Sequence record: NZ_CP090684.1
Direction: 5' to 3' (one strand)
Length of the DNA: 64,000 nucleotides
Source: a plasmid
Shown here one piece after another: positions 25,470-45,313 of this stretch. The position numbers were made by a program, and so were the translations under genes. The notes under the pieces are model-generated. The model was not told where the DNA came from. It made no database searches and saw only the letters and a list, made by a program, of their open reading frames with translations. How positions within the stretch are numbered: position 1 is the stretch's first letter; every line of letters starts with the position of its first letter.

Positions 25470-26594
25470 CTATGTCCCAGCAATCAGTTCAAGCTGGCCA
25501 ACGTCTCGCGCGTCCGAATCCCAGCGGCGCAGCGCGTAGTACCACTTTGACAGCTTCTTGGCCAGCAACTCACGATGAATGCTCGCTGTGAGTTGCTCGT
25601 CCTGCCGTCGGTTGTCACGGTCGCACCGAAAGAAGACGACCATTGCCTTGTCGTCGTCGAGCGCTATGTGAAATTCCGGCAGTTTGTCCGCTTTCATGGC
25701 CGCAATGAGATCTCTGCGGAAATACTTAAGTGCTTGAGCGGACCCCGACTTGCCGTAGAGCTTTTCAAGGCCGATTTTGAACCACAGCTTGTCACCACAG
25801 TGCTTCTTGGCCAAATCGTAAAGGCGACGCTCAAGACCTTGCCCCAAATCGAAGTAACCCGGATGTAGGGTTAGGATGCGCCGACTCAGCAACAAATCGT
25901 AGGTCCAACTCGACAATACTAGCTCGACCTCCAGCGCCCCTTTCCGATTGGCGGTATACGTGATCACCGAATATTCCTGGATCAACCCGTATCCGCGTAA
26001 GGTCTCGTGGATCCCGGCTTCATTGGCACCCGGGCGCGTCGTATCGAAATTTGTTTCGATGATGGTGCCTTTCAAGCGTCGGCAGCTATCAACGATGCGC
26101 TCATACGAAGCGCCGCCCGTACTGCGTCGGGTGTATTTGAGAAAGTCACGGACCTTGAATCGGATTCGGCGTGAAACCGGGATATCGGAGTCGGCCGCCT
26201 TGCAAATCAGTGTAGCGGCGTAGACGAGCAGATCCTTATCGAAGATATTTGCCGCCCCCACCCCGCTTGGGATGATTCTGACGATTTGTTCGCCGTTGCG
26301 GTAGACGCGAACCCGCGTGTCTTTGCCCTTTTGCAGTGAGAAAAGGGGGAACTCGAGAGAATGAAGGTCCTCGCGGGGCTTCCAGGACAAGTCAAGTTGC
26401 TCGCCGAAAAACAGTTCGAGCTGCTCTGGATCGAACTCGCCCTCGTCCAGTCGAACGACATCATCGCCGTCGGCTGAGTTTTCCGATTGCTCAGCGCCTT
26501 GGCTGCGTGCCAATGGTGGTCGTGCGCCCATCGGCAACTGCGCCGCTCCTGCCCCCCTCAGTGAGTAGCTGTTCTCGGAATTGACTGTACTCAT
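25470..26594 (-). CDS. repA: Plasmid-type replication initiator protein (RepA/RPA family-like)
   Basis: 374 aa. Positioned after the korA-korB-incC-like genes. Resembles 'replication initiator protein A' of Proteobacterial plasmids and islands. Confidence 0.6.
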   Translation of the reverse strand: MSTVNSENSYSLRGAGAAQLPMGARPPLARSQGAEQSENSADGDDVVRLDEGEFDPEQLELFFGEQLDLSWKPREDLHSLEFPLFSLQKGKDTRVRVYRNGEQIVRIIPSGVGAANIFDKDLLVYAATLICKAADSDIPVSRRIRFKVRDFLKYTRRSTGGASYERIVDSCRRLKGTIIETNFDTTRPGANEAGIHETLRGYGLIQEYSVITYTANRKGALEVELVLSSWTYDLLLSRRILTLHPGYFDLGQGLERRLYDLAKKHCGDKLWFKIGLEKLYGKSGSAQALKYFRRDLIAAMKADKLPEFHIALDDDKAMVVFFRCDRDNRRQDEQLTASIHRELLAKKLSKWYYALRRWDSDARDVGQLELIAGT

Positions 26595-26616
26595 TCTCTC
26601 CTGCTTTCCCCGTATT

Positions 26617-27027
26617 TCATTCCAGCTTGCTCGTTTGCGTGCCGAGATGTTTGATCAGGGCAGACACTGCCGACTGGACTTTATTCGTATCTTTCGATCG
26701 TTGTGCCTTCGCAAGGAAGCGCGCGAGCGGTTCGACAAGCGGGCTCGGCACTTCGAATTCCTGCTTTAGCCAGACGATGACCTCCGCACTTCGCAGTTCC
26801 GAGTTCGTCAGGCTCTCGTAGTAGCGCTTCACCAACTGGCTGACGCGTTGTCGAGAAACCCCAAATTCACTCGCAACGTCCGCCGCCGGCCGCCCGTCGA
26901 CGATCACGGCGCGTGCGATATCGCGAGTAGCTTCGTCAAACGGACGTGTCCCGAACTCGCGCGCGTGCTTCCGCATGGCGGAGTCCAATGCTGAAAAATG
27001 CTTCGCTGAAAGGCGGAATGTAGCCAA
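26617..27027 (-). CDS. KorA/TrfB-like HTH transcriptional repressor
   Basis: HTH ADVASEFGVSRQRVSQLVKRY. Located between parB and repA. Confidence 0.5.
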   Translation of the reverse strand: MATFRLSAKHFSALDSAMRKHAREFGTRPFDEATRDIARAVIVDGRPAADVASEFGVSRQRVSQLVKRYYESLTNSELRSAEVIVWLKQEFEVPSPLVEPLARFLAKAQRSKDTNKVQSAVSALIKHLGTQTSKLE

Positions 27028-27089
27028 GATTGCTTTCCGAATAGGTTGACAAGCAACGAACTGGCGCCTGCCCGCCTCGGTCCGTTGCG

Positions 27090-28448
27090 TTACAGCGACC
27101 AGTCGTTCGGCGCCAGAGGATGAATTTCGCGGTCGGTATCGTAACCGAAGTCATCTGGCAGAACGCCGGGTCGCCGGCACGGATGCAATCTGTTCAGCAG
27201 CTCGAGCGGCCCACTCGAATTTATTTCATCATTGAACCTGTTTATTATTTTACCCGCTGTTTCAGTTGGCATGCCAGCAAGCGCCGAGGCAGCCAGGTCC
27301 ACAAAGCAGACCCACAACCTCCATTCGATGTCCTCCGCACGCACGCCAGCCGCCGAAAGGTCGGCGTGCAACCGGCGAACTCTCTCGACGGATCCGGTGC
27401 CGATTTCGTAGATTTCCTCTACGCGCCAAACCGACGTCTCACTCGGATCGGCGGCGGCAGCGTGCAAACGCTTCGCTTTGGGTACTTGCCGCAGCCCCTC
27501 CGGAGATGCCGCCGGGCTCGGAGCTAGGCGAGCGTCCGCCATATTCGGCACATCGGCATCATGTTCTGCGCCGTGGGCCGCCTGACCCTCGAATACAGGA
27601 CCAGGTGACGGTTGTTGGCCATCGTCAATGGACTGCGATGCAGTAGAACCCGGTGCCTCGGCCGGCGCGCTCGAGCGAGCCATAGCAGCTGCCTCGCCGA
27701 CCGCATCTTTCACCGACGGAGCGGCGACCTGCTTCAGCAGGTTCAGTCGCGCATCGAGCGTCAAGCGTCCGAACTTCTTTCCTGCCCGCATGTCCGTTGC
27801 GATTTCGTGCGCAGTCGCGGCACTGCAAGCCTCGATGTCGGCCATTTTGTTGGCCGCTTCGACGTCGTCGAACATGTCCTCATCGAACAAGGCTCGGGTC
27901 GTGGGACCATAACGAAGGAACCGCAAGTGTTTCGAGACCCATGACGCGCTGCGCTCCTTGCCGCTCGGCGCCGCCCAGATGCTGGCTGCTTGCTCTCGCC
28001 CGTACAACTCGACGTCTGTCGCAAGGCCGATAGCCGTCTCTCTCACCGAGAGTTGCTTTCGATCGATGTTCTCGGACACCTGATACATCCGGATTGCCAA
28101 GTCTGACGTCCCGGCGGGGAAAATCTTTGCCTGTATCTCCGGCCAGTCGTTCAAAAGGCTGCCTCGGATGCGCCGCTCGCCGGCGATCAGCTCATACTCG
28201 TCGCTGTCCGAAATTGCTCGCACCAATATCGGCGTGTGCACGTGACCGATCGCCCGAAGCCGCTCGGCGAACGCCTGCACATCGGCGAAATCGTCGCGAA
28301 CTTGAGGTTTGATCCGAACTTTATTGACCGCGATGAACCTCGTCACCGCCCCTGTGGCCTGCTCGATTTCAGCCACACGCGATGCCGCGCTTGCCGCTCG
28401 AGTCAGTGCCGAAATAGAAGCAAACTTCCCGCTTGTCGCCTGCTGCAT
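27090..28448 (-). CDS. parB: ParB/KorB-like partition protein (ParB N-terminal nuclease-like domain)
   Basis: ParB box ELIAGERRIRGS. Downstream of the ParA ATPase. Confidence 0.7.
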   Translation of the reverse strand: MQQATSGKFASISALTRAASAASRVAEIEQATGAVTRFIAVNKVRIKPQVRDDFADVQAFAERLRAIGHVHTPILVRAISDSDEYELIAGERRIRGSLLNDWPEIQAKIFPAGTSDLAIRMYQVSENIDRKQLSVRETAIGLATDVELYGREQAASIWAAPSGKERSASWVSKHLRFLRYGPTTRALFDEDMFDDVEAANKMADIEACSAATAHEIATDMRAGKKFGRLTLDARLNLLKQVAAPSVKDAVGEAAAMARSSAPAEAPGSTASQSIDDGQQPSPGPVFEGQAAHGAEHDADVPNMADARLAPSPAASPEGLRQVPKAKRLHAAAADPSETSVWRVEEIYEIGTGSVERVRRLHADLSAAGVRAEDIEWRLWVCFVDLAASALAGMPTETAGKIINRFNDEINSSGPLELLNRLHPCRRPGVLPDDFGYDTDREIHPLAPNDWSL

Positions 28449-28462
28449 TCAACGACCCCTCT

Positions 28463-29305
28463 TTATGCGTTGCTCACCGAAAGGCCGATGCGCTCCAAAA
28501 TGGAGTCGCACACGGCGTGCATTTCTTTCGCAGCAAGCCGATCACTTTCGCCCCTCCGACGCGCCCACACCGGATGAAAACTTGTCAGGCGGACCCCCGC
28601 ACGATCGCGCAATTCGTGTTCGAGTACTGCGTCGTCGAACGCATTCCGAACAGTCGTCCTCATCGATTGGTCATCGGCGCGTCGCAGATTGACCTTGTTG
28701 AGCAGAACGCCCACCAGCTCGAGATCCGGATTCCATTCGCGCTTGACGAGCTCAAGCTTCTCCGACGTACTGAGAAGGCCCGACATACTGTCAATTCCGA
28801 GATCAGTCGGAATCACGACGTAGTCGGCGCAGATCATCCCGCCCAACACGAGGTTGCTCATCGTTGGCGCGGTGTCGATCACGCACAGATCAAATTGGTC
28901 CGCCAGTGCATCCAAGGATTCCCGCGCCTTCGCCGCTGATTCGAGCGGCCAAGTCATGACGTCCTCGAGCTCCGGCGTCGCGCCGATCATTGCCGCCCCG
29001 TCGACAATTCGCATTGGATTGACGTCCCGTTTGCCCTGGTAGAGCAAGTGCGCACTCGAATTTTCTGTCACATCCGGTAGGCCCAAGTGCTCCCATGTAA
29101 GTGCCGCGCCCATCACCGACGGACCCGACTTCGCGGTCAGCTTTCGGTACAGCATCGACCTTGTCAGATTGCCTTGCGGATCCAGATCCACCACCAACAC
29201 GCGGATCCCTCGCTCGATTGCCGTGTAGACCAGATGCCGAACAATAGTCGTCTTGCCGGTGCCGCCCTTCCCATTCACGATGCTTATCTTCTTCATGGCC
29301 ACCAT
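28463..29305 (-). CDS. parA: ParA/IncC partition ATPase
   Basis: Deviant Walker A KGGTGKTT. Confidence 0.9.
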   Translation of the reverse strand: MVAMKKISIVNGKGGTGKTTIVRHLVYTAIERGIRVLVVDLDPQGNLTRSMLYRKLTAKSGPSVMGAALTWEHLGLPDVTENSSAHLLYQGKRDVNPMRIVDGAAMIGATPELEDVMTWPLESAAKARESLDALADQFDLCVIDTAPTMSNLVLGGMICADYVVIPTDLGIDSMSGLLSTSEKLELVKREWNPDLELVGVLLNKVNLRRADDQSMRTTVRNAFDDAVLEHELRDRAGVRLTSFHPVWARRRGESDRLAAKEMHAVCDSILERIGLSVSNA

Positions 29306-40085: not shown

Positions 40086-41117
40086 TTATCTGCGGCTACC
40101 TGCGCCCTTCGGGCTGGCCGGATTTTCGCGGGAAACTGTGCGTGCCGGCTTGTCGGCGCGCAGCCCGCAAAAAGACGGATGCCGTAACCGGCCGGCCGGC
40201 GTCCACTCGAGAAACGCCACTTCGGCGACGAGGTCGGGCTTCAGCCAGTGAAACTCACGATCGACCTCAGGGTCGGGGGCGCTGGCAAACGGCGAGCGTT
40301 TGCGGCCCAACGCCGAGAGCCGACTCTCGAATTCCCGAGCCTGTCGCGGCGTAAAGCTCGGCGCGACGTGGCCGACATAGCGCAGGCGACCACCCTCCTC
40401 GTACACGCCCAACAGCAACGCCCGCACCCCTGCTGTCGCCCCTTTCCGGCGGGAAAACCCGCCGATCACGAACTCCTGGCGTCTGACACATTTCAATTTG
40501 ATCCACCGATCCGACCGTCCGGACCGATACGGTGCGTCGATTTGCTTGCCAATGATGCCTTCGAGGCCGAGCTCACATGCGGATGCCAGCATGGCGGACG
40601 CATCTGCCTCGATCGCCTCGGAAAATCGAACCTCCTCCCGAAGAACTTCACCGATGATTCCCGTTAGAGCGGATCGGCGCTCGTGCCATGGCCGACGGCG
40701 AAGGTCAGTGTCGTCTATCCACATAAGGTCGAAGACCACAAGACATATACCGGTGGTACGCCGACTGTTGAATGCTTCCTGCAGACGGCTGAAGTTAGGG
40801 CGCCCATCGGGGGCGAAACATACGGCCTCGGCATCAAGCCACGCGCGTTGGACCGGTAACCTCTTCAGGACCGCGGTCAGGTGCGGGAGCTTACTCGTCC
40901 AATCGTGGCCATTCCTTGTATAGAGCCGTACGTCACCATCATCGACGCGCACGAGCATCCGGTAACCGTCGAACTTTATCTCGTAGGCCCAATCTCCCGC
41001 CGGCGGCGGCTCGGACATTAGCACGGCCAAGGCAGGCGCAATGAATTCGGACATGCGCGCATTCTTGGCTACGACCACCCCCGCTCGGGTCTTTTGTGCT
41101 GTTGTACGCCGTTGCAT
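40086..41117 (-). CDS. ATP-dependent DNA ligase (LigD ligase-domain type, stand-alone)
   Basis: Motif I EIKFDGYR plus the downstream adenylation/OB region. Start likely at internal Met 41117 or 41054, because the parS palindrome at 41204-41219 lies in the annotated 5' extension. Confidence 0.7.
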   Translation of the reverse strand: MQRRTTAQKTRAGVVVAKNARMSEFIAPALAVLMSEPPPAGDWAYEIKFDGYRMLVRVDDGDVRLYTRNGHDWTSKLPHLTAVLKRLPVQRAWLDAEAVCFAPDGRPNFSRLQEAFNSRRTTGICLVVFDLMWIDDTDLRRRPWHERRSALTGIIGEVLREEVRFSEAIEADASAMLASACELGLEGIIGKQIDAPYRSGRSDRWIKLKCVRRQEFVIGGFSRRKGATAGVRALLLGVYEEGGRLRYVGHVAPSFTPRQAREFESRLSALGRKRSPFASAPDPEVDREFHWLKPDLVAEVAFLEWTPAGRLRHPSFCGLRADKPARTVSRENPASPKGAGSRR

Positions 41118-41203
41118 ACGGCCTCCCTCTTGCCGATCGGAATGCGCGCAATCGAGCGCAATCGATATACCCGACGGCCTTCGCAATTGACCGAGGCTTG
41201 CAC

Positions 41204-41219
41204 CTTGGCTCGAGCCAAG
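41204..41219. repeat. parS-like 16-bp perfect palindrome CTTGGCTCGAGCCAAG (copy 1)
   Basis: Self-complementary 16-mer. Four copies cluster around parAB. Confidence 0.65.
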
Positions 41220-41402
41220 ATCTCGGCGATCCATCGGGGTCAGCTTCCACTGCTTCAGCCGATACTCGATCCTGCTCTGGATTTGCAGGTCTTGCTGGCT
41301 ATCGGCACAAGAGCGAGTCCTTGACGATCTGGCTGGCGCGATACGCTCTTGCAGGTGCCATGTCCGGCTGGCGAGCGACGTTCATTGGAACGTCTTTGCG
41401 GT

Positions 41403-41418
41403 CTTGGCTCGAGCCAAG
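41403..41418. repeat. parS-like palindrome CTTGGCTCGAGCCAAG (copy 2)
   Basis: Identical 16-mer. Confidence 0.65.
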
Positions 41419-41459
41419 ATGCGCGCAGGCAACGCCAATTCAGACGTGGCTGCGGTGAT

Positions 41460-41475
41460 CTTGGCTCGAGCCAAT
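41460..41475. repeat. parS-like palindrome, 15/16 match (copy 3)
   Basis: CTTGGCTCGAGCCAAT. Confidence 0.6.
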
Positions 41476-41610
41476 CGCATAGCGGGCCCGAAGCGTTGTA
41501 GTGCGACCACATTTATAAGTCTTTTTTCGGGATTTTTACTCGGTTGATTGACATAGTTTGTTGGTCGAATGACAATCCGATCGTCGAAACATGCTTCGAG
41601 CGGAGGTTAA

Positions 41611-42282
41611 ATGGTCATCACCATCGGTGCGGAAAAAGGCGGCGTTGCGAAGACACGATTAGCGACGCACATCGCGGCATTAGCTGCGAGCGAGGGAGTG
41701 GACGTGGTTCTTCTCGATACGGACAAACAGGGGTCCGCTATGAGCTGGTCGCGAATTCGAAATGAGGAAGGCGTCACACCTTCCATCCCTGTACTCGCGC
41801 TCCCGGCGAATCCCGCACGCGAGCTAGCGAATCTGGCAAACAAGTACACGCTAGTGGTGGTTGATATCGGGGCGCAAAACTACCGGACCATGCTGGAATG
41901 CGCACTTTTATCCGATCTCGTGCTAGTTCCGTGTGGTCCCGACCAACAGGAAGTTGAATCAACTCTCAACGTTTTTGCGACCCTTAAGGACATGGGGCCC
42001 AGGCACGAGAGTGGGGAAATCCCAGCCTACGTTGTTCTTACGCGAGTTTCGCCGATTGAAGGATCCAAGGCGACGGCGGAACTGAGAAGCTATTTCAAAA
42101 GCGAAGATATCCGGTTGTTTGATTCGCAGATTCCCCAGCGGGAAGCATGGCGCGCGACCGGCAAGACTGGACGCGCGGTTCACGAGCTGAAAGGCCGCGA
42201 TCGTTCCAAAAAAGCGATTGAAGAGATGGAAGCGGTCTACCGGGAAATCATTAAGCGGATCAATGGTGGGGAGGAGGAATAA
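41611..42282 (+). CDS. parA: ParA-family partition ATPase (small type)
   Basis: Walker A GAEKGGVAKT. Confidence 0.85.
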   Translation: MVITIGAEKGGVAKTRLATHIAALAASEGVDVVLLDTDKQGSAMSWSRIRNEEGVTPSIPVLALPANPARELANLANKYTLVVVDIGAQNYRTMLECALLSDLVLVPCGPDQQEVESTLNVFATLKDMGPRHESGEIPAYVVLTRVSPIEGSKATAELRSYFKSEDIRLFDSQIPQREAWRATGKTGRAVHELKGRDRSKKAIEEMEAVYREIIKRINGGEEE

Positions 42283-43247
42283 TGGCTACTTTCCGGAAAA
42301 AGGCGGTTGATATCGAACGAGTGGCAGCCGTCGAGGATGCAGCTTCGTCGGCGCCGATCGTCGGCGACCCTCGCTTGGCACCGACGATGCCCTCAGTTTC
42401 GCAGCGTGAGAGCGGGGCGGTTGGCTCGAGCCAAGACCCTAGGAAGTATGAGGTTGGACACGTATATGAAATCCCGATTGGCAAAATAAGATCAAATTCT
42501 GTCAATCCAAGAGCGATCTACACCGCTTCTGCTGTCTCCGAGATGGCGGAATCTCTCCTCGCGCGGGGCCAAGGTCAAGCCGCGATCGGCTATGTCAACG
42601 ATGACGCAGAGATTGTGCTCATCGACGGCGAGCGGCGGCTTCGCGGCGCTCGGACTGCCGGCCTTTCGACCCTGCGGATCGAGATTCGTCCGAAGCCCGG
42701 AAGCGAGCGCGAGCTTTATGAGGAAGCCCGGGCTGCGAACGTAGAGCGGAAGGATCAAAGCCCGTTGGACGACGCTATCAAATGGAAGGAGTTGATCGCG
42801 CGGAAGATCTATCCCACGCAAGCGGCGCTTGCTAAGGCGCTGAATCTCGGCGAAGACCACGTGAGCCGCACATTGTCTCTCGCCCAATTGCCGAACAAGC
42901 TTGTCCAAGCAGCGGCGGAGCACCCGGAACTTCTTTCTCTCAAAATGCTGAACGCCATTCGAGAGTTCTGGGAAGTGAAGGGGGACGATGAAACTCTCGA
43001 GCTGATTTCCGAGGCTGCGAAGAATGGGCTGGGGTATCGCGACGTAGCCGCTCGCCGTAAGGCCGCTGCAAAAGGACCGGTTCGGCGGCCGCGGTCGACG
43101 CGGGAACAGCTGAGTTTTCGAGGAGCGAAGGGGGAGTTTAAGTCTTTTGAAGAGGACGGCCGGATCGAGTTGAAGCTGAAGGGCTTGGCACCGGACGTCG
43201 CGGCCGAGATCAGTGAAAAAATCTTGGCTCTTTTCCCGAAGGAGTAG
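42282..43247 (+). CDS. parB: ParB partition protein
   Basis: ParB box LIDGERRLRGA. Contains the fourth parS-like copy internally. Confidence 0.85.
   Translation: MATFRKKAVDIERVAAVEDAASSAPIVGDPRLAPTMPSVSQRESGAVGSSQDPRKYEVGHVYEIPIGKIRSNSVNPRAIYTASAVSEMAESLLARGQGQAAIGYVNDDAEIVLIDGERRLRGARTAGLSTLRIEIRPKPGSERELYEEARAANVERKDQSPLDDAIKWKELIARKIYPTQAALAKALNLGEDHVSRTLSLAQLPNKLVQAAAEHPELLSLKMLNAIREFWEVKGDDETLELISEAAKNGLGYRDVAARRKAAAKGPVRRPRSTREQLSFRGAKGEFKSFEEDGRIELKLKGLAPDVAAEISEKILALFPKE
42420..42435. repeat. parS-like palindrome inside parB (copy 4, inner 14 bp perfect)
   Basis: GTTGGCTCGAGCCAAG. Confidence 0.6.
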
Positions 43248-43359
43248 GGGGCGCTGCTGCTTCGCAGCGCAAGCGGGTTACCGACACAGGGGCTAGAGGA
43301 CGTTGAGCTGGGATGTGCTGCGCTGTGCAACTGTGCACGGCTGCAGCATCTGGAAACTA

Positions 43360-43960
43360 TCGGCTCTGGAGCGATGGGTTCTCTTTACATCCTGTAAGAA
43401 AGTCTCGTGCTTGGAGCGATGGTGTATGACGTTCCTCCAGCGATGGTGCAGACGCGGCGGGCTTGAGCGCGAGAGTGTGTGCTCACCTTGCTTTGCGCAT
43501 CTCGGGTCGTTCTTCCAGCGATGCTTCTCGTCGAGAATCGTTCCTCCAGCGATGTTTGTGGGTGACTCGGCGGCCGGTACTGTCGTTCATGGAGCGATGA
43601 GTGACGGATCCACCGTGAGATTGTTGGGCTGCAGGTATCGTGCTTCCAGCGATGGATGACATGATTAGAAAAAGATTAAAGACGATTAGGCTTTGTGGAA
43701 AACATAGGTAGCCCACTGATTGCAAAGAGGTTTTTTGCGGATCGTGCTCGCTGGAAGAACGATAGATGCATCGCTGGCGATACGATGCACGCCTCGCTGG
43801 AGAGACGATGGGCAACGCTGCAGGAACGACAGAGGTTGCACGCTGGAGGAACGAGGAACATCGCTGCAGGAACGACTGCGCCGCGATACCTCGCTGGAGG
43901 GACGATAGTCCCGTAGTTTTTTTGCTGAACCATCGCTGGAGAGACGAGACAAGGGTCTTG
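43360..43960. repeat. Iteron-type origin of vegetative replication (oriV): about 15 direct repeats flanking an AT-rich core
   Basis: Seven copies of (C/T)(C/T)(G/C)(G/C)AGCGATG(G) at 43366-43655. AT-rich segment 43656-43700. Eight about 17-bp iterons CGCTGGAGnnACGAnnG at 43749-43950 with about 21-25 bp spacing. Immediately upstream of the trfA-like gene. Confidence 0.75.
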
Positions 43961-43991
43961 ATGGCGGGACCGACCTACATATACTTCTCGC

Positions 43992-44849
43992 ATGGCAAAT
44001 TCCATCGTCGACCACGTGAAAGCGATTGCGGCCCGCGCTAGCAGCGCGGGCGCTGAAACGCAATCTCATCCGACACAGATTCCGCTGTGGCCGCCGAACG
44101 TTCGTGGTATGCCAAACGCGCTAGCGCGCTCGGCTCTGTTCAACGTCAACAAGTCGAATGCGCCGCGTAGCAGGATGGAGAAAGCGCTGATTGCAAGTGT
44201 TGATGGGGTGGAAATAACGTTCAGTGGGGAAGAGCTTAGACAGGACGATGCGGACGTCTTTCTAGAAGTGCTTCACTTGGCTAGAGACACGCAGCTGAAC
44301 GAGAAGGTGGAATTCACGGGCTACAGCGTACTGAAGTCTCTCGGGTGGGGCACGTCTGTGAAATGTTACGACCGACTCGTGACGACGCTGGAACGACTGC
44401 AGGCAGGGCAGGTGAAAGTGCGTTTCTCCGGCAACAAAAAGGGGTTCGTCGGCTCGTTAATCCGGAAGTTCCTGTGGAAAGAGGGCACTGAAACGGGAAC
44501 TGACGGGAAGACGAGGTGGGTGGCGTACGTAGAACCCGAGATCGTGGCGCTTTTCTCCGATGACGATTACACGCGACTCGCGCGCGAGCAACGCCAACGG
44601 TTGCGATATGAATTGTCGAAATGGCTGCACACCTACTACCACACGCATGCAGTGCCTTACGCGCATTCCGTTCGTTTCCTTCATCGTCAGTGTGGTTCGC
44701 AGACCAAAGAGTTGTTTCACTTTCGCGCGAACTTGAAAAAGGCGCTTGATGAACTTGTAAAGGAAGGCTTCCTGGTGAGCTGGACGATCGACAAGAACGA
44801 TTTGGTCCATGTTGTTCGCGCGTCGGCTCGCGGGGCAATTGCCGCGTAA
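43992..44849 (+). CDS. trfA: TrfA-like plasmid replication initiator
   Basis: 285 aa. Lies downstream of the iteron array. The IPLWPPNVRGMPNALARSALF region resembles TrfA-family initiators. Confidence 0.65.
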   Translation: MANSIVDHVKAIAARASSAGAETQSHPTQIPLWPPNVRGMPNALARSALFNVNKSNAPRSRMEKALIASVDGVEITFSGEELRQDDADVFLEVLHLARDTQLNEKVEFTGYSVLKSLGWGTSVKCYDRLVTTLERLQAGQVKVRFSGNKKGFVGSLIRKFLWKEGTETGTDGKTRWVAYVEPEIVALFSDDDYTRLAREQRQRLRYELSKWLHTYYHTHAVPYAHSVRFLHRQCGSQTKELFHFRANLKKALDELVKEGFLVSWTIDKNDLVHVVRASARGAIAA

Positions 44850-45059
44850 AGAACAGCGCTGTTAGCTCGTTCCACAAGCGCCTTTGAAGGTTCGAATGCC
44901 CCTCGGTGGGCCGGCCGTTTTGTTGGAGACTTCAGGGTGTGGGAGGCGCGGCGGGGCAAACGAGGGCGGATATCGGTTTCGTTGACCGTTAGTTGCACAA
45001 TTCGTGTGGAGTCCCCAAGCAGACCGACATAAACGGGCTTGTAAACGCCTTCGCCTCTC

Positions 45060-45152
45060 GATATACTCGATAAGCGCCTGAGACAGCAGGCGTCGGGTTT
45101 GGCGACCCGTCTAATCAAAGCGCACAAGACCGCGCCCGCGGTCTTTTTTGTG
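45060..45152 (+). ncRNA. Candidate small RNA with intrinsic terminator
   Basis: Promoter-like TTGTAA-N17-GATATACT. Internal hairpin CGCCTG/CAGGCG. Strong terminator AAGACCGCG-CCC-GCGGTCTT + TTTTTT at 45126-45152. No ORF. Confidence 0.35.
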
Positions 45153-45313
45153 CCGAAGGCCTTTGCGCGCCGGTTTCTATGGGCGGGCCAAGGCGGGGAG
45201 ACCTTCGAGTCTGCCGGTTTCTTTGATTTCCGGTTCGCCAACCCTGCCTTGTGCCCGCTCACCCCATTTGGCGATGGGGCGCGGGGAAAATCGCAAATCA
45301 AAGAGGCCAATCC

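Follow-up and report, generated by a model that had tools for sequence, protein, structure and literature searches.

From where does the plasmid of sequence record NZ_CP090684.1 start its replication, and with which initiator? The question is raised by one stretch of 64,000 nucleotides (nt) of this plasmid, here called the window. A preliminary description, made from the letters alone, had pointed there to about 15 direct repeats flanking an AT-rich core, directly upstream of a gene for a TrfA-like initiator. Our analysis gives an answer that we hold with high confidence. The segment 43248-44849 very probably comprises the replication origin (oriV) and the initiator gene of a Burkholderia plasmid that replicates by the theta mode at low copy number and belongs to the pBCJ2315/rep_cluster_1467 family, and it is joined to a parABS partition cassette; we infer its function as an origin from the sequence and its relatives. 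It is a genuine iteron oriV with trfA, and it is already known in kind. The replicon family has been described before, and therefore the novelty is low. A full map of 15 iterons, a core of 13-mer-like repeats that spans clades and a probably leaderless trfA are the additions to prior knowledge. The principal elements, in window positions, are the following.

43360-76, 43405-21, 43429-45, 43507-23, 43538-54, 43583-99 and 43638-54, minus strand: left (distal) array of seven iterons, L1-L7
43663-43690: core of the presumed DNA-unwinding element, with GATTA three times at a phase of 11 and then 10 nt; bottom strand TAATCgTCTT / TAATCTTTTTC / TAATC
43694-43702, minus strand: DnaA-box-like TTTTCCACA, fitting the relaxed consensus TTWTNCACA
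43746-62, 43769-85, 43792-808, 43813-29, 43838-54, 43859-75, 43889-905 and 43931-47, plus strand: right (proximal) array of eight iterons, R1-R8
43992-44849, plus strand: trfA, plasmid replication initiator of 285 amino acids (Pfam TrfA, PF07042)

The iteron unit is 17 nt long, CATCGCTGGAGnnACGA, and is present in 15 copies within 588 bp (43360-43947). The preliminary description was right in the number and the position of the repeats. It was wrong in taking them all as direct, because the strand split is complete: all seven copies of the left array lie on the minus strand and all eight of the right array on the plus strand. The repeat finder grouped the left copies as TCGTnCnTCCAGCGATG and the right copies as CGCTGGAGnnACGA, two families that are inverted repeats of each other. 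Separate 12-bp and 17-bp forms had also been proposed. The supposed 12-bp forms, ..TCCAGCGATGG and ..TGGAGCGATGG, are the reverse complement of the 17-nt unit, and the core that all repeats were said to share, CTGGAG...CGATGG, mixes the two orientations. The alignment of the iterons that had been recommended for deriving a consensus gave this one unit. When the 15 copies are aligned in one orientation, the blocks CGCT and ACGA are near-invariant, the centre is variable, and a GG/CC/GC dinucleotide polymorphism is seen. Both arrays turn the same iteron end (CATCG) toward the core. The start-to-start spacing of the left array is loose and irregular (45, 24, 78, 31, 45 and 55 nt), and that of the right array is 23, 23, 21, 25, 21, 30 and 42 nt. 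The spacing of about 22 bp ascribed to the right set is thus true for its first five intervals and is lost in the last two.

The degenerate pattern CGCTGSAGNNACGA was scanned over the 64-kb window with at most two mismatches. It matched 45 times against 22 expected, and 15 of the matches fall inside 43360-43947, where about 0.3 would be expected from the background of 30 in the remaining ~63.4 kb. A 17-nt weight matrix gave the 15 iterons 19-28 bits, and no other site in the window scored above 14.4 bits; inside the window this matrix is circular, being built from the same 15 copies, and it was independently validated on other plasmids. The iterons are restricted to the intergenic region between parB and trfA. 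A candidate for a 16th iteron after the trfA stop codon (44867-44880, two mismatches) was rejected. Its matrix score is below 0 bits, and the homology with relatives of 83% identity stops at the stop codon.

The parB-trfA intergenic regions of six plasmids, one each from B. multivorans, B. glumae and B. contaminans and three from B. cenocepacia (J2315, ST32 and HI2424), were compared with that of the window. Five of the six are about 83% identical to it in DNA. The window matrix finds exactly 15 sites, seven on the minus and eight on the plus strand, in each of the six plasmids, all of them intergenic and none in the 6-9 kb flank. The offsets of the right-array sites from the trfA ATG are the same in all seven plasmids (-246, -223, -200, -179, -154, -133, -103 and -61). 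Invariant columns of the seven-way alignment amount to 90% (203/225) in the iteron core and 41% in the spacers (Fisher p = 1.5e-27). By region, the share is 35% for the left spacers, 58% for the right spacers and 18% for the parB-proximal 112 nt. There are no indels in the right array of any of the seven plasmids. In the left array, the others (L002-L006) have 11 nt, one helical turn, more between L3 and L4 than the window (43446-43506) and L001, its closest relative. Variant iterons hold their position across the plasmids, for example the CC form at L2 and the GC form at R6. Since the iterons are conserved, the spacers have diverged and the variants are fixed in place, the repeats behave as protein-binding sites under selection, helical phasing included.

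The AT-rich stretch reported between the two sets of repeats is indeed present at 43655-43745. Its GC content is 33-40% (0.30-0.40 over 43651-43745) against 0.614 for the window, and it ranks among the five lowest-GC 60-mers of the window. Tandem GATTA/TAATC repeats such as those within it were not found once in 200 shuffles. They are kept in the seven plasmids and in the more distant B. glumae plasmid p22s3p, and they are inverted in a Comamonadaceae plasmid. Read on the bottom strand, the repeats follow TAATCnTnTT(T) and resemble TAAACnTTnTTTT, the 13-mer consensus of the RK2 unwinding element. For TrfA, binding to this 13-mer in single-stranded form has been described, specific for both strand and sequence (Wegrzyn et al. 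2014, PMC4081077). The DnaA-like TTTTCCACA has one mismatch to TTATCCACA, and the relaxed consensus TTWTNCACA has just two matches in the 64-kb window. The TGTGGA core of this box is kept in the seven-plasmid alignment; the box as a whole is conserved in position and varies in sequence among relatives. A T6 tract comes after the box. The consensus of integration host factor, WATCAANNNNTTR, has no match anywhere in the window.

The claim of a TrfA-like initiator downstream of the repeats was confirmed by profile search. The product of the open reading frame 43992-44849 matches Pfam TrfA with 119.3 bits against a cutoff of 22 (E 2.1e-34), with residues 29-276 on positions 38-282 of the 282 positions of the profile. 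The comparison with the TrfA and RPA families had been advised, a protein without similarity to any Rep initiator being the refuting outcome; the similarity to TrfA is clear, and the RPA-family match is sub-threshold. No model of the NCBIfam library matched the protein. The annotation by the Prokaryotic Genome Annotation Pipeline reads 'plasmid replication initiator TrfA' in all records examined. The protein is 100% identical to the product of the B. multivorans plasmid NZ_CP048444.1, and 97% identical to those of pBCJ2315 and of many B. glumae, B. contaminans and B. cenocepacia plasmids. The alignment with pJP4 TrfA gave 31% identity, with W33, R38, P41, N42, R46 and F50 among the invariant residues and the common motif PWP..R.(L/M)PN...RS.(L/I)F. 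A tblastn search gave 34.5% identity to IncP-1 TrfA over residues 33-276 (about 34% for pJP4 and pADP-1). The 285 residues correspond to the C-terminal two-thirds of the 406-residue IncP-1 protein of pJP4. The pentapeptide QLSLF is the beta-clamp-binding motif of RK2 TrfA. The QLSLF of pJP4 aligns to TQSHP here, and nearby only QIPLW (residues 29-33) is seen; the motif is not family-defining in Pfam. A PDB sequence search with the protein gave no relative at E <= 1.

The reading frame is under selection over its whole length. Relative to the plasmids of 83% identity, codons 42-285 carry about 98 synonymous and 4-7 non-synonymous changes, and codons 1-41 differ mainly at third positions. Therefore, strong purifying selection acts from the annotated ATG on. 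The N-terminus is homologous to that of the TrfA of p22s3p, whose start codon is preceded by a normal Shine-Dalgarno sequence, GGGAGGTG, and thus the ATG at 43992 is taken as real. The overall comparison indicates that the downstream protein is a bona fide member of the TrfA family. Its gene is preceded by a promoter-like site.

43958-43985, plus strand: putative trfA promoter, -35 TTGATG (43958-63), 16-nt spacer, -10 TATACT (43980-85)

The two hexamers have nine of 12 consensus matches. In the seven-plasmid alignment the -35, the -10 and the length of the spacer are conserved, and the spacer sequence has diverged. Between the end of the -10 and the trfA ATG are 6 nt, and a Shine-Dalgarno sequence is missing there. 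Therefore, a leaderless trfA mRNA is predicted, and the mRNA is probably leaderless in this clade, with transcription presumed to start at the ATG or close to it.

Which replicon is this? The locus is of the pBCJ2315 replicon type, called 'p1' or 'pBC' (rep_cluster_1467). Du et al. 2016 (PLoS Genet, PMC4948915) located the iterons of the 'p1 origin cluster' of pBCJ2315 by software (S1 Table and S2 Fig), with the consensus tgTCGTtCYTCCAGCGAtg in four forward and four reverse copies. They reported about one copy of p1 per chromosome and stated that it was unknown whether its replication is uni- or bidirectional. The published sites correspond to eight of the 15 mapped here, namely L3-L6 and R1, R5, R7 and R8, and were matched by the spacings 89, 31, 45 and 92, 51, 42. 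The two loci have the same iteron, the window consensus TCGTtCCTCCAGCGATG being the reverse complement of CATCGCTGGAGgaACGA. They also have in common the order parA-parB-iterons-trfA, a TrfA of 97% identity, the parS palindrome and 15 orthologous sites at the same offsets. On the other hand, the DNA of oriV and trfA is only about 83% identical, the spacers have diverged and the 11-nt indel separates the two; the window plasmid is nearest to a 162-kb B. multivorans plasmid, at 97.6-98.8% identity, and carries an RPA-type module. That 162-kb conjugative plasmid, NZ_CP048444.1, is the closest record and is collinear with the window on both sides of the locus at 97-99% identity. Therefore, the locus sits on the plasmid backbone that is typed rep_cluster_1467 by MOB-suite.

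The partition cassette lies directly upstream of the iterons.

41204-41219, 41403-41418 and 41460-41475: three parS palindromes, CTTGGCTCGAGCCAAG, upstream of parA
41611-42282, plus strand: parA, partition ATPase of 223 amino acids (Pfam CbiA/AAA_31; NCBIfam ParA_partition, E 6e-37)
42282-43247, plus strand: parB, 321 amino acids (Pfam ParB_N; NCBIfam TIGR00180, E 1e-22)
42420-42435: fourth parS, CTTGGCTCGAGCCAAG, inside parB

The match of parA to ParA_partition has 127 bits and is under the 180-bit cutoff of that model. TTGGCTCGAGCCAA has four exact copies in the window against 0.3 expected. The 16-bp palindrome CTTGGCTCGAGCCAAG fits parS-pBC as reconstructed from the positions quoted in PMC5450999, and parS-pBC has been studied experimentally (Pillet et al. 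2017, PMC5450999).

More distant relatives were inspected for the same layout. In p22s3p of B. glumae (L007, rep_cluster_1449), whose TrfA is 42% identical, four iterons TCGTGGTTTGACCGACC come after parA-parB; an AT-rich gap separates them from eight inverted copies spaced by 21-22 nt, and trfA is next. The gap contains GATTAAAGAAGTATTAAAGAAGATTAG and then the DnaA-like CTATGCACA. The Comamonadaceae plasmid (L008), with a TrfA of 41% identity, has opposed arrays of a third iteron, and its core is inverted, with the DnaA-like TTATGCACA and TAATC repeats between the arrays. TTATGCACA and CTATGCACA stand at the equivalent place in their respective plasmids. The tandem TAATC motif was found only in TrfA-type relatives; neither a RepA_C-type cassette nor a TrfA locus of 36% identity has it. 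Judged by these comparisons, a different initiator comes with a different double-strand iteron, and the core motif is retained.

The RepA_C-type cassette is that of the sister B. multivorans plasmid NZ_CP090706.1 (L013, 84260-89367). This plasmid shares both flanks with the window at 93-97% (window ~40600-45075) and carries parA-parB-iterons (CGCATAAnTTGGGGCG)-RepA_C (PF04796) where the window has parAB-oriV-trfA. The right boundary of the swap is the start of an isrK RNA, to which we return below. The swap indicates that the block of partition genes, origin and rep gene is an exchangeable module. In the RepA_C cassette, as in the TrfA locus, the distal array is loose and the proximal one tight and inverted, and therefore opposed arrays are a common theme among Burkholderia low-copy replicons. 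The Burkholderiales cassettes compared (p22s3p, NZ_CP090706.1 and the Bcen c2/c3 origins) resemble the locus in parA-parB, in the loose distal array, in the AT-rich gap and in the tight inverted proximal array (21-23 nt spacing) followed by rep. They differ from it in the iteron sequences and, for NZ_CP090706.1, in the initiator family (PF04796), and the TAATC core is restricted to the TrfA type.

How would the locus work? On the model of RK2, F and P1, the 17-nt iterons would be bound by TrfA monomers. The right array of eight iterons, tightly phased with some two helical turns for each, would melt the AT-rich core jointly with host DnaA bound at the adjacent DnaA-like box. The phased TAATC repeats would probably act there like the RK2 13-mers, contacted by TrfA as single-stranded DNA, and the host helicase and replisome would be loaded after melting. 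The loose, opposed left array of seven iterons would most likely titrate TrfA and pair with other arrays (handcuffing). Handcuffing would keep the copy number near one per chromosome and would likewise give rise to incompatibility. trfA would be transcribed from the sigma-70-like promoter downstream of the last iteron, probably without a leader. This division of labour, with the right array for origin opening and the left array for copy control, is drawn from analogy, and we favour it with moderate confidence.

The RK2 paradigm comprises DnaA boxes, iterons and the 13-mers of the unwinding element (PMC4980987). RK2/RP4 (IncP-1) and the present locus are alike in the Pfam TrfA initiator (31-34% identity to pJP4 TrfA), in 17-nt iterons spaced about 22-23 bp and in an AT-rich unwinding element with phased repeats like TAAACnTTnTTTT; a putative DnaA box is present as well. 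The theta-replicon iteron architecture seen in the preliminary description is supported. That description had overlooked that the two sets are opposed arrays of one iteron and that the 'classic' layout of RK2 differs in several respects. First, the iteron sequence is unrelated. Second, the arrays of the window are opposed and flank the unwinding element, whereas the RK2 clusters have the same orientation and lie on one side. Third, trfA stands beside oriV and parAB here and in a distant ssb-trfA operon in RK2 (cf. locus L011). Fourth, TrfA of the window is without the long N-terminal extension (285 amino acids against 406 in pJP4), and QLSLF is not aligned.

The plasmids F (incB/incC) and P1 (incC/incA) are of low copy number, with two iteron arrays and linkage to ParABS-type partition. 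The locus resembles them in having two oppositely oriented arrays that presumably divide origin function and copy control between them, in the succession of a DnaA-like box and AT-rich region, tight iterons and the rep gene, and in low copy number with a linked partition cassette. The initiators of F and P1, however, are RepE and RepA and not TrfA. Their control array is downstream of rep, whereas that of the window is on the far side of the unwinding element, and no promoter-overlapping operator is evident in the window.

This last difference belongs to a group of observations that weigh against reading the locus as an active TrfA origin with the roles given above. No iteron-like operator was found over the trfA promoter: there is no site of at least 3 bits, and no full or partial iteron overlaps the -35 or the -10. 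Thus classical autorepression by promoter occlusion is not evident, and any autoregulation of trfA would need R8 (centred near -53) or looping. Only a single, imperfect DnaA-like box is present, whereas RK2 has four. The single-sequence AlphaFold2 model of TrfA has a mean pLDDT (predicted local distance difference test) of 37 and is unusable for a check of the fold, in which two winged-helix domains would be expected as in iteron initiators of the RepE/pi type. A literature search found no mini-replicon or replication assay and no binding or footprint experiment for the pBCJ2315-type family. An RPA-family initiator is encoded at 25470-26594, so that the TrfA replicon need not be the sole active one in this plasmid. 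Finally, the TAATC repeats abut the left array, with 9 nt from L7 to the first GATTA repeat, and not the right array, with 55 nt from the last repeat to R1.

The position of the TAATC repeats is also the main support for the best of the rival explanations, in which the roles are swapped: the left array would open the origin, and the right array would serve as a TrfA sink or in the transcriptional control of trfA. The same geometry is found in p22s3p, and in the minimal oriV of RK2 the iterons adjoin the unwinding element (PMC4980987). The structure of the arrays, however, points the other way. The left array is irregular, tolerates the 11-nt indel and varies in number by clade (seven here, four in p22s3p), whereas the right array keeps a rigid phase, has no indels and counts eight copies in both clades, which is the pattern expected for cooperative opening. 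In addition, the origin iterons of F, P1 and pSC101 lie between the AT-rich region and rep. We therefore regard the swap of roles as unlikely, yet as the likeliest of the alternatives.

A symmetric bidirectional origin is the next possibility. Here both arrays would be active and two helicases would be loaded head to head, unlike in the unidirectional RK2. The idea agrees with the CATCG end that both arrays present to the core, with the recurrence of opposed arrays in p22s3p, in the Comamonadaceae plasmid and even in the RepA_C-type NZ_CP090706.1, and with the statement of Du et al. 2016 (PMC4948915) that the direction of p1 replication is unknown. It is difficult to reconcile with two arrays that are very unequal in spacing and conservation and with a core that is asymmetric, the repeats being on one side and the DnaA-like box on the other. 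We consider such an origin improbable. Equally doubtful is the wider proposal of a symmetric bidirectional TrfA origin combined with a single-strand TAATC code that is fixed across TrfA clades despite the changed iteron specificity. If it were true, such an origin and a leaderless trfA mRNA would make up a separate way in which Burkholderiales control low copy number, and one that could plausibly have served in the transition from plasmids to chromids.

The repeats could also be only operators or an incompatibility locus, with the true origin elsewhere, for example at 25.5-29.3 kb, where the window has a second module of initiator and partition genes.

25470-26594, minus strand: RPA-family replication initiator protein A (Pfam E 3e-56)
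26617-27027, minus strand: KorA/TrfB-like repressor
27090-28448, minus strand: ParB-N protein
28463-29305, minus strand: ParA

This module (25470-29305) may be a second replicon or may derive from an integrative and conjugative element. No iterons were detected beside the RPA gene. In the TrfA locus, the AT-rich core between the arrays contains a DnaA-like box and repeats similar to the 13-mers. Close relatives of the module were found in only five plasmids, and none of the pBCJ2315, B. glumae or B. contaminans group is among them. MOB-suite types the plasmids of the family by the TrfA replicon alone. In the 50 kb inspected of the 52.7-kb family member pR53p, no initiator other than trfA is annotated, so that the TrfA cassette is apparently sufficient in nature, a reading limited by the incompleteness of the PLSDB gene tables. 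An origin elsewhere, with the repeats as mere control sites, is accordingly very unlikely. The last explanation, that the repeats reflect chance, base composition or repetitive coding (for example in the open reading frames 43303-43659, plus strand, and 43686-44069, minus strand), can practically be dismissed: several frames of at least 100 amino acids do overlap the iterons in this sequence of 61% GC, but they have no Pfam matches, the conservation is site by site, tracking iteron boundaries and not codons, the spacers carry indels, and the clustering is far beyond chance.

The reading of 43248-44849 as an iteron oriV with trfA does not change the current understanding of iteron replicons. 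Its value is mainly in annotation, since it defines the origin, centromere, initiator and incompatibility determinants of a backbone of the B. cepacia complex, found in cystic-fibrosis isolates and rice pathogens. The 15-site map, the 13-mer-like repeats and the predicted leaderless trfA can be a basis for Burkholderia-specific low-copy vectors. The same elements allow a test of firing in one or in two directions, which was left open by Du et al. 2016.

Some other conserved elements lie among the iterons.

43469-43491: non-iteron block GAGAGTGTGTGCTCACCTTGC, 21 nt, with a GTGAG..CTCAC inverted repeat, between L3 and L4
43730-43738: T-tract GTTTTTTGC, ahead of R1
43906-43930: T7-tract block TAGTCCCGTAGTTTTTTTGCTGAACC, between R7 and R8, conserved

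The first block is nearly invariant in the seven-plasmid alignment (GAGAGTGTGTrCTCACCTTG), and a similar palindrome, AGTGAGtgCTCACT, is found beside the left array of p22s3p. It may be a site for a host factor or a weak terminator of parAB, as the scan flags a weak terminator-like site. The T-tract of TAGTCCCGTAGTTTTTTTGCTGAACC is similar to GTTTTTTGC, and two GTTTTTTGC blocks are conserved; they may act in DNA bending or in the binding of host factors. A terminator at 43899-43912 was considered and rejected. Its hairpin stem is only 5 bp and is weakened in relatives, and the T-tract is the conserved part.

The neighbourhood of the locus holds further genes. A DNA ligase of the ATP-dependent type of non-homologous end joining (LigD ligase domain; 40086-41234, minus strand) adjoins the par cassette. 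Further upstream, related plasmids carry a vapBC toxin-antitoxin pair and a cassette of imuA, a Y-family polymerase and an error-prone polymerase. Just downstream of trfA, Rfam detects an isrK-type RNA (45074-45148, plus strand; 60.6 bits, gathering score 50) and a C4 antisense RNA (45175-45266, plus strand; 70 bits, gathering score 45), with a c4-a1b1 target that is sub-threshold. By these matches, the two RNAs constitute an antisense module like immI of phages P1/P7. A promoter-like site at 45039-45067 puts the start of the isrK region at about 45074, and a strong terminator is predicted at 45126-45145. The RNA module is followed by an open reading frame of 427 amino acids (45251/45316-46534), which has no Pfam or PHROG match. 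The 230-bp RNA region is common to unrelated Burkholderia and Paraburkholderia plasmids at 85-87% identity.

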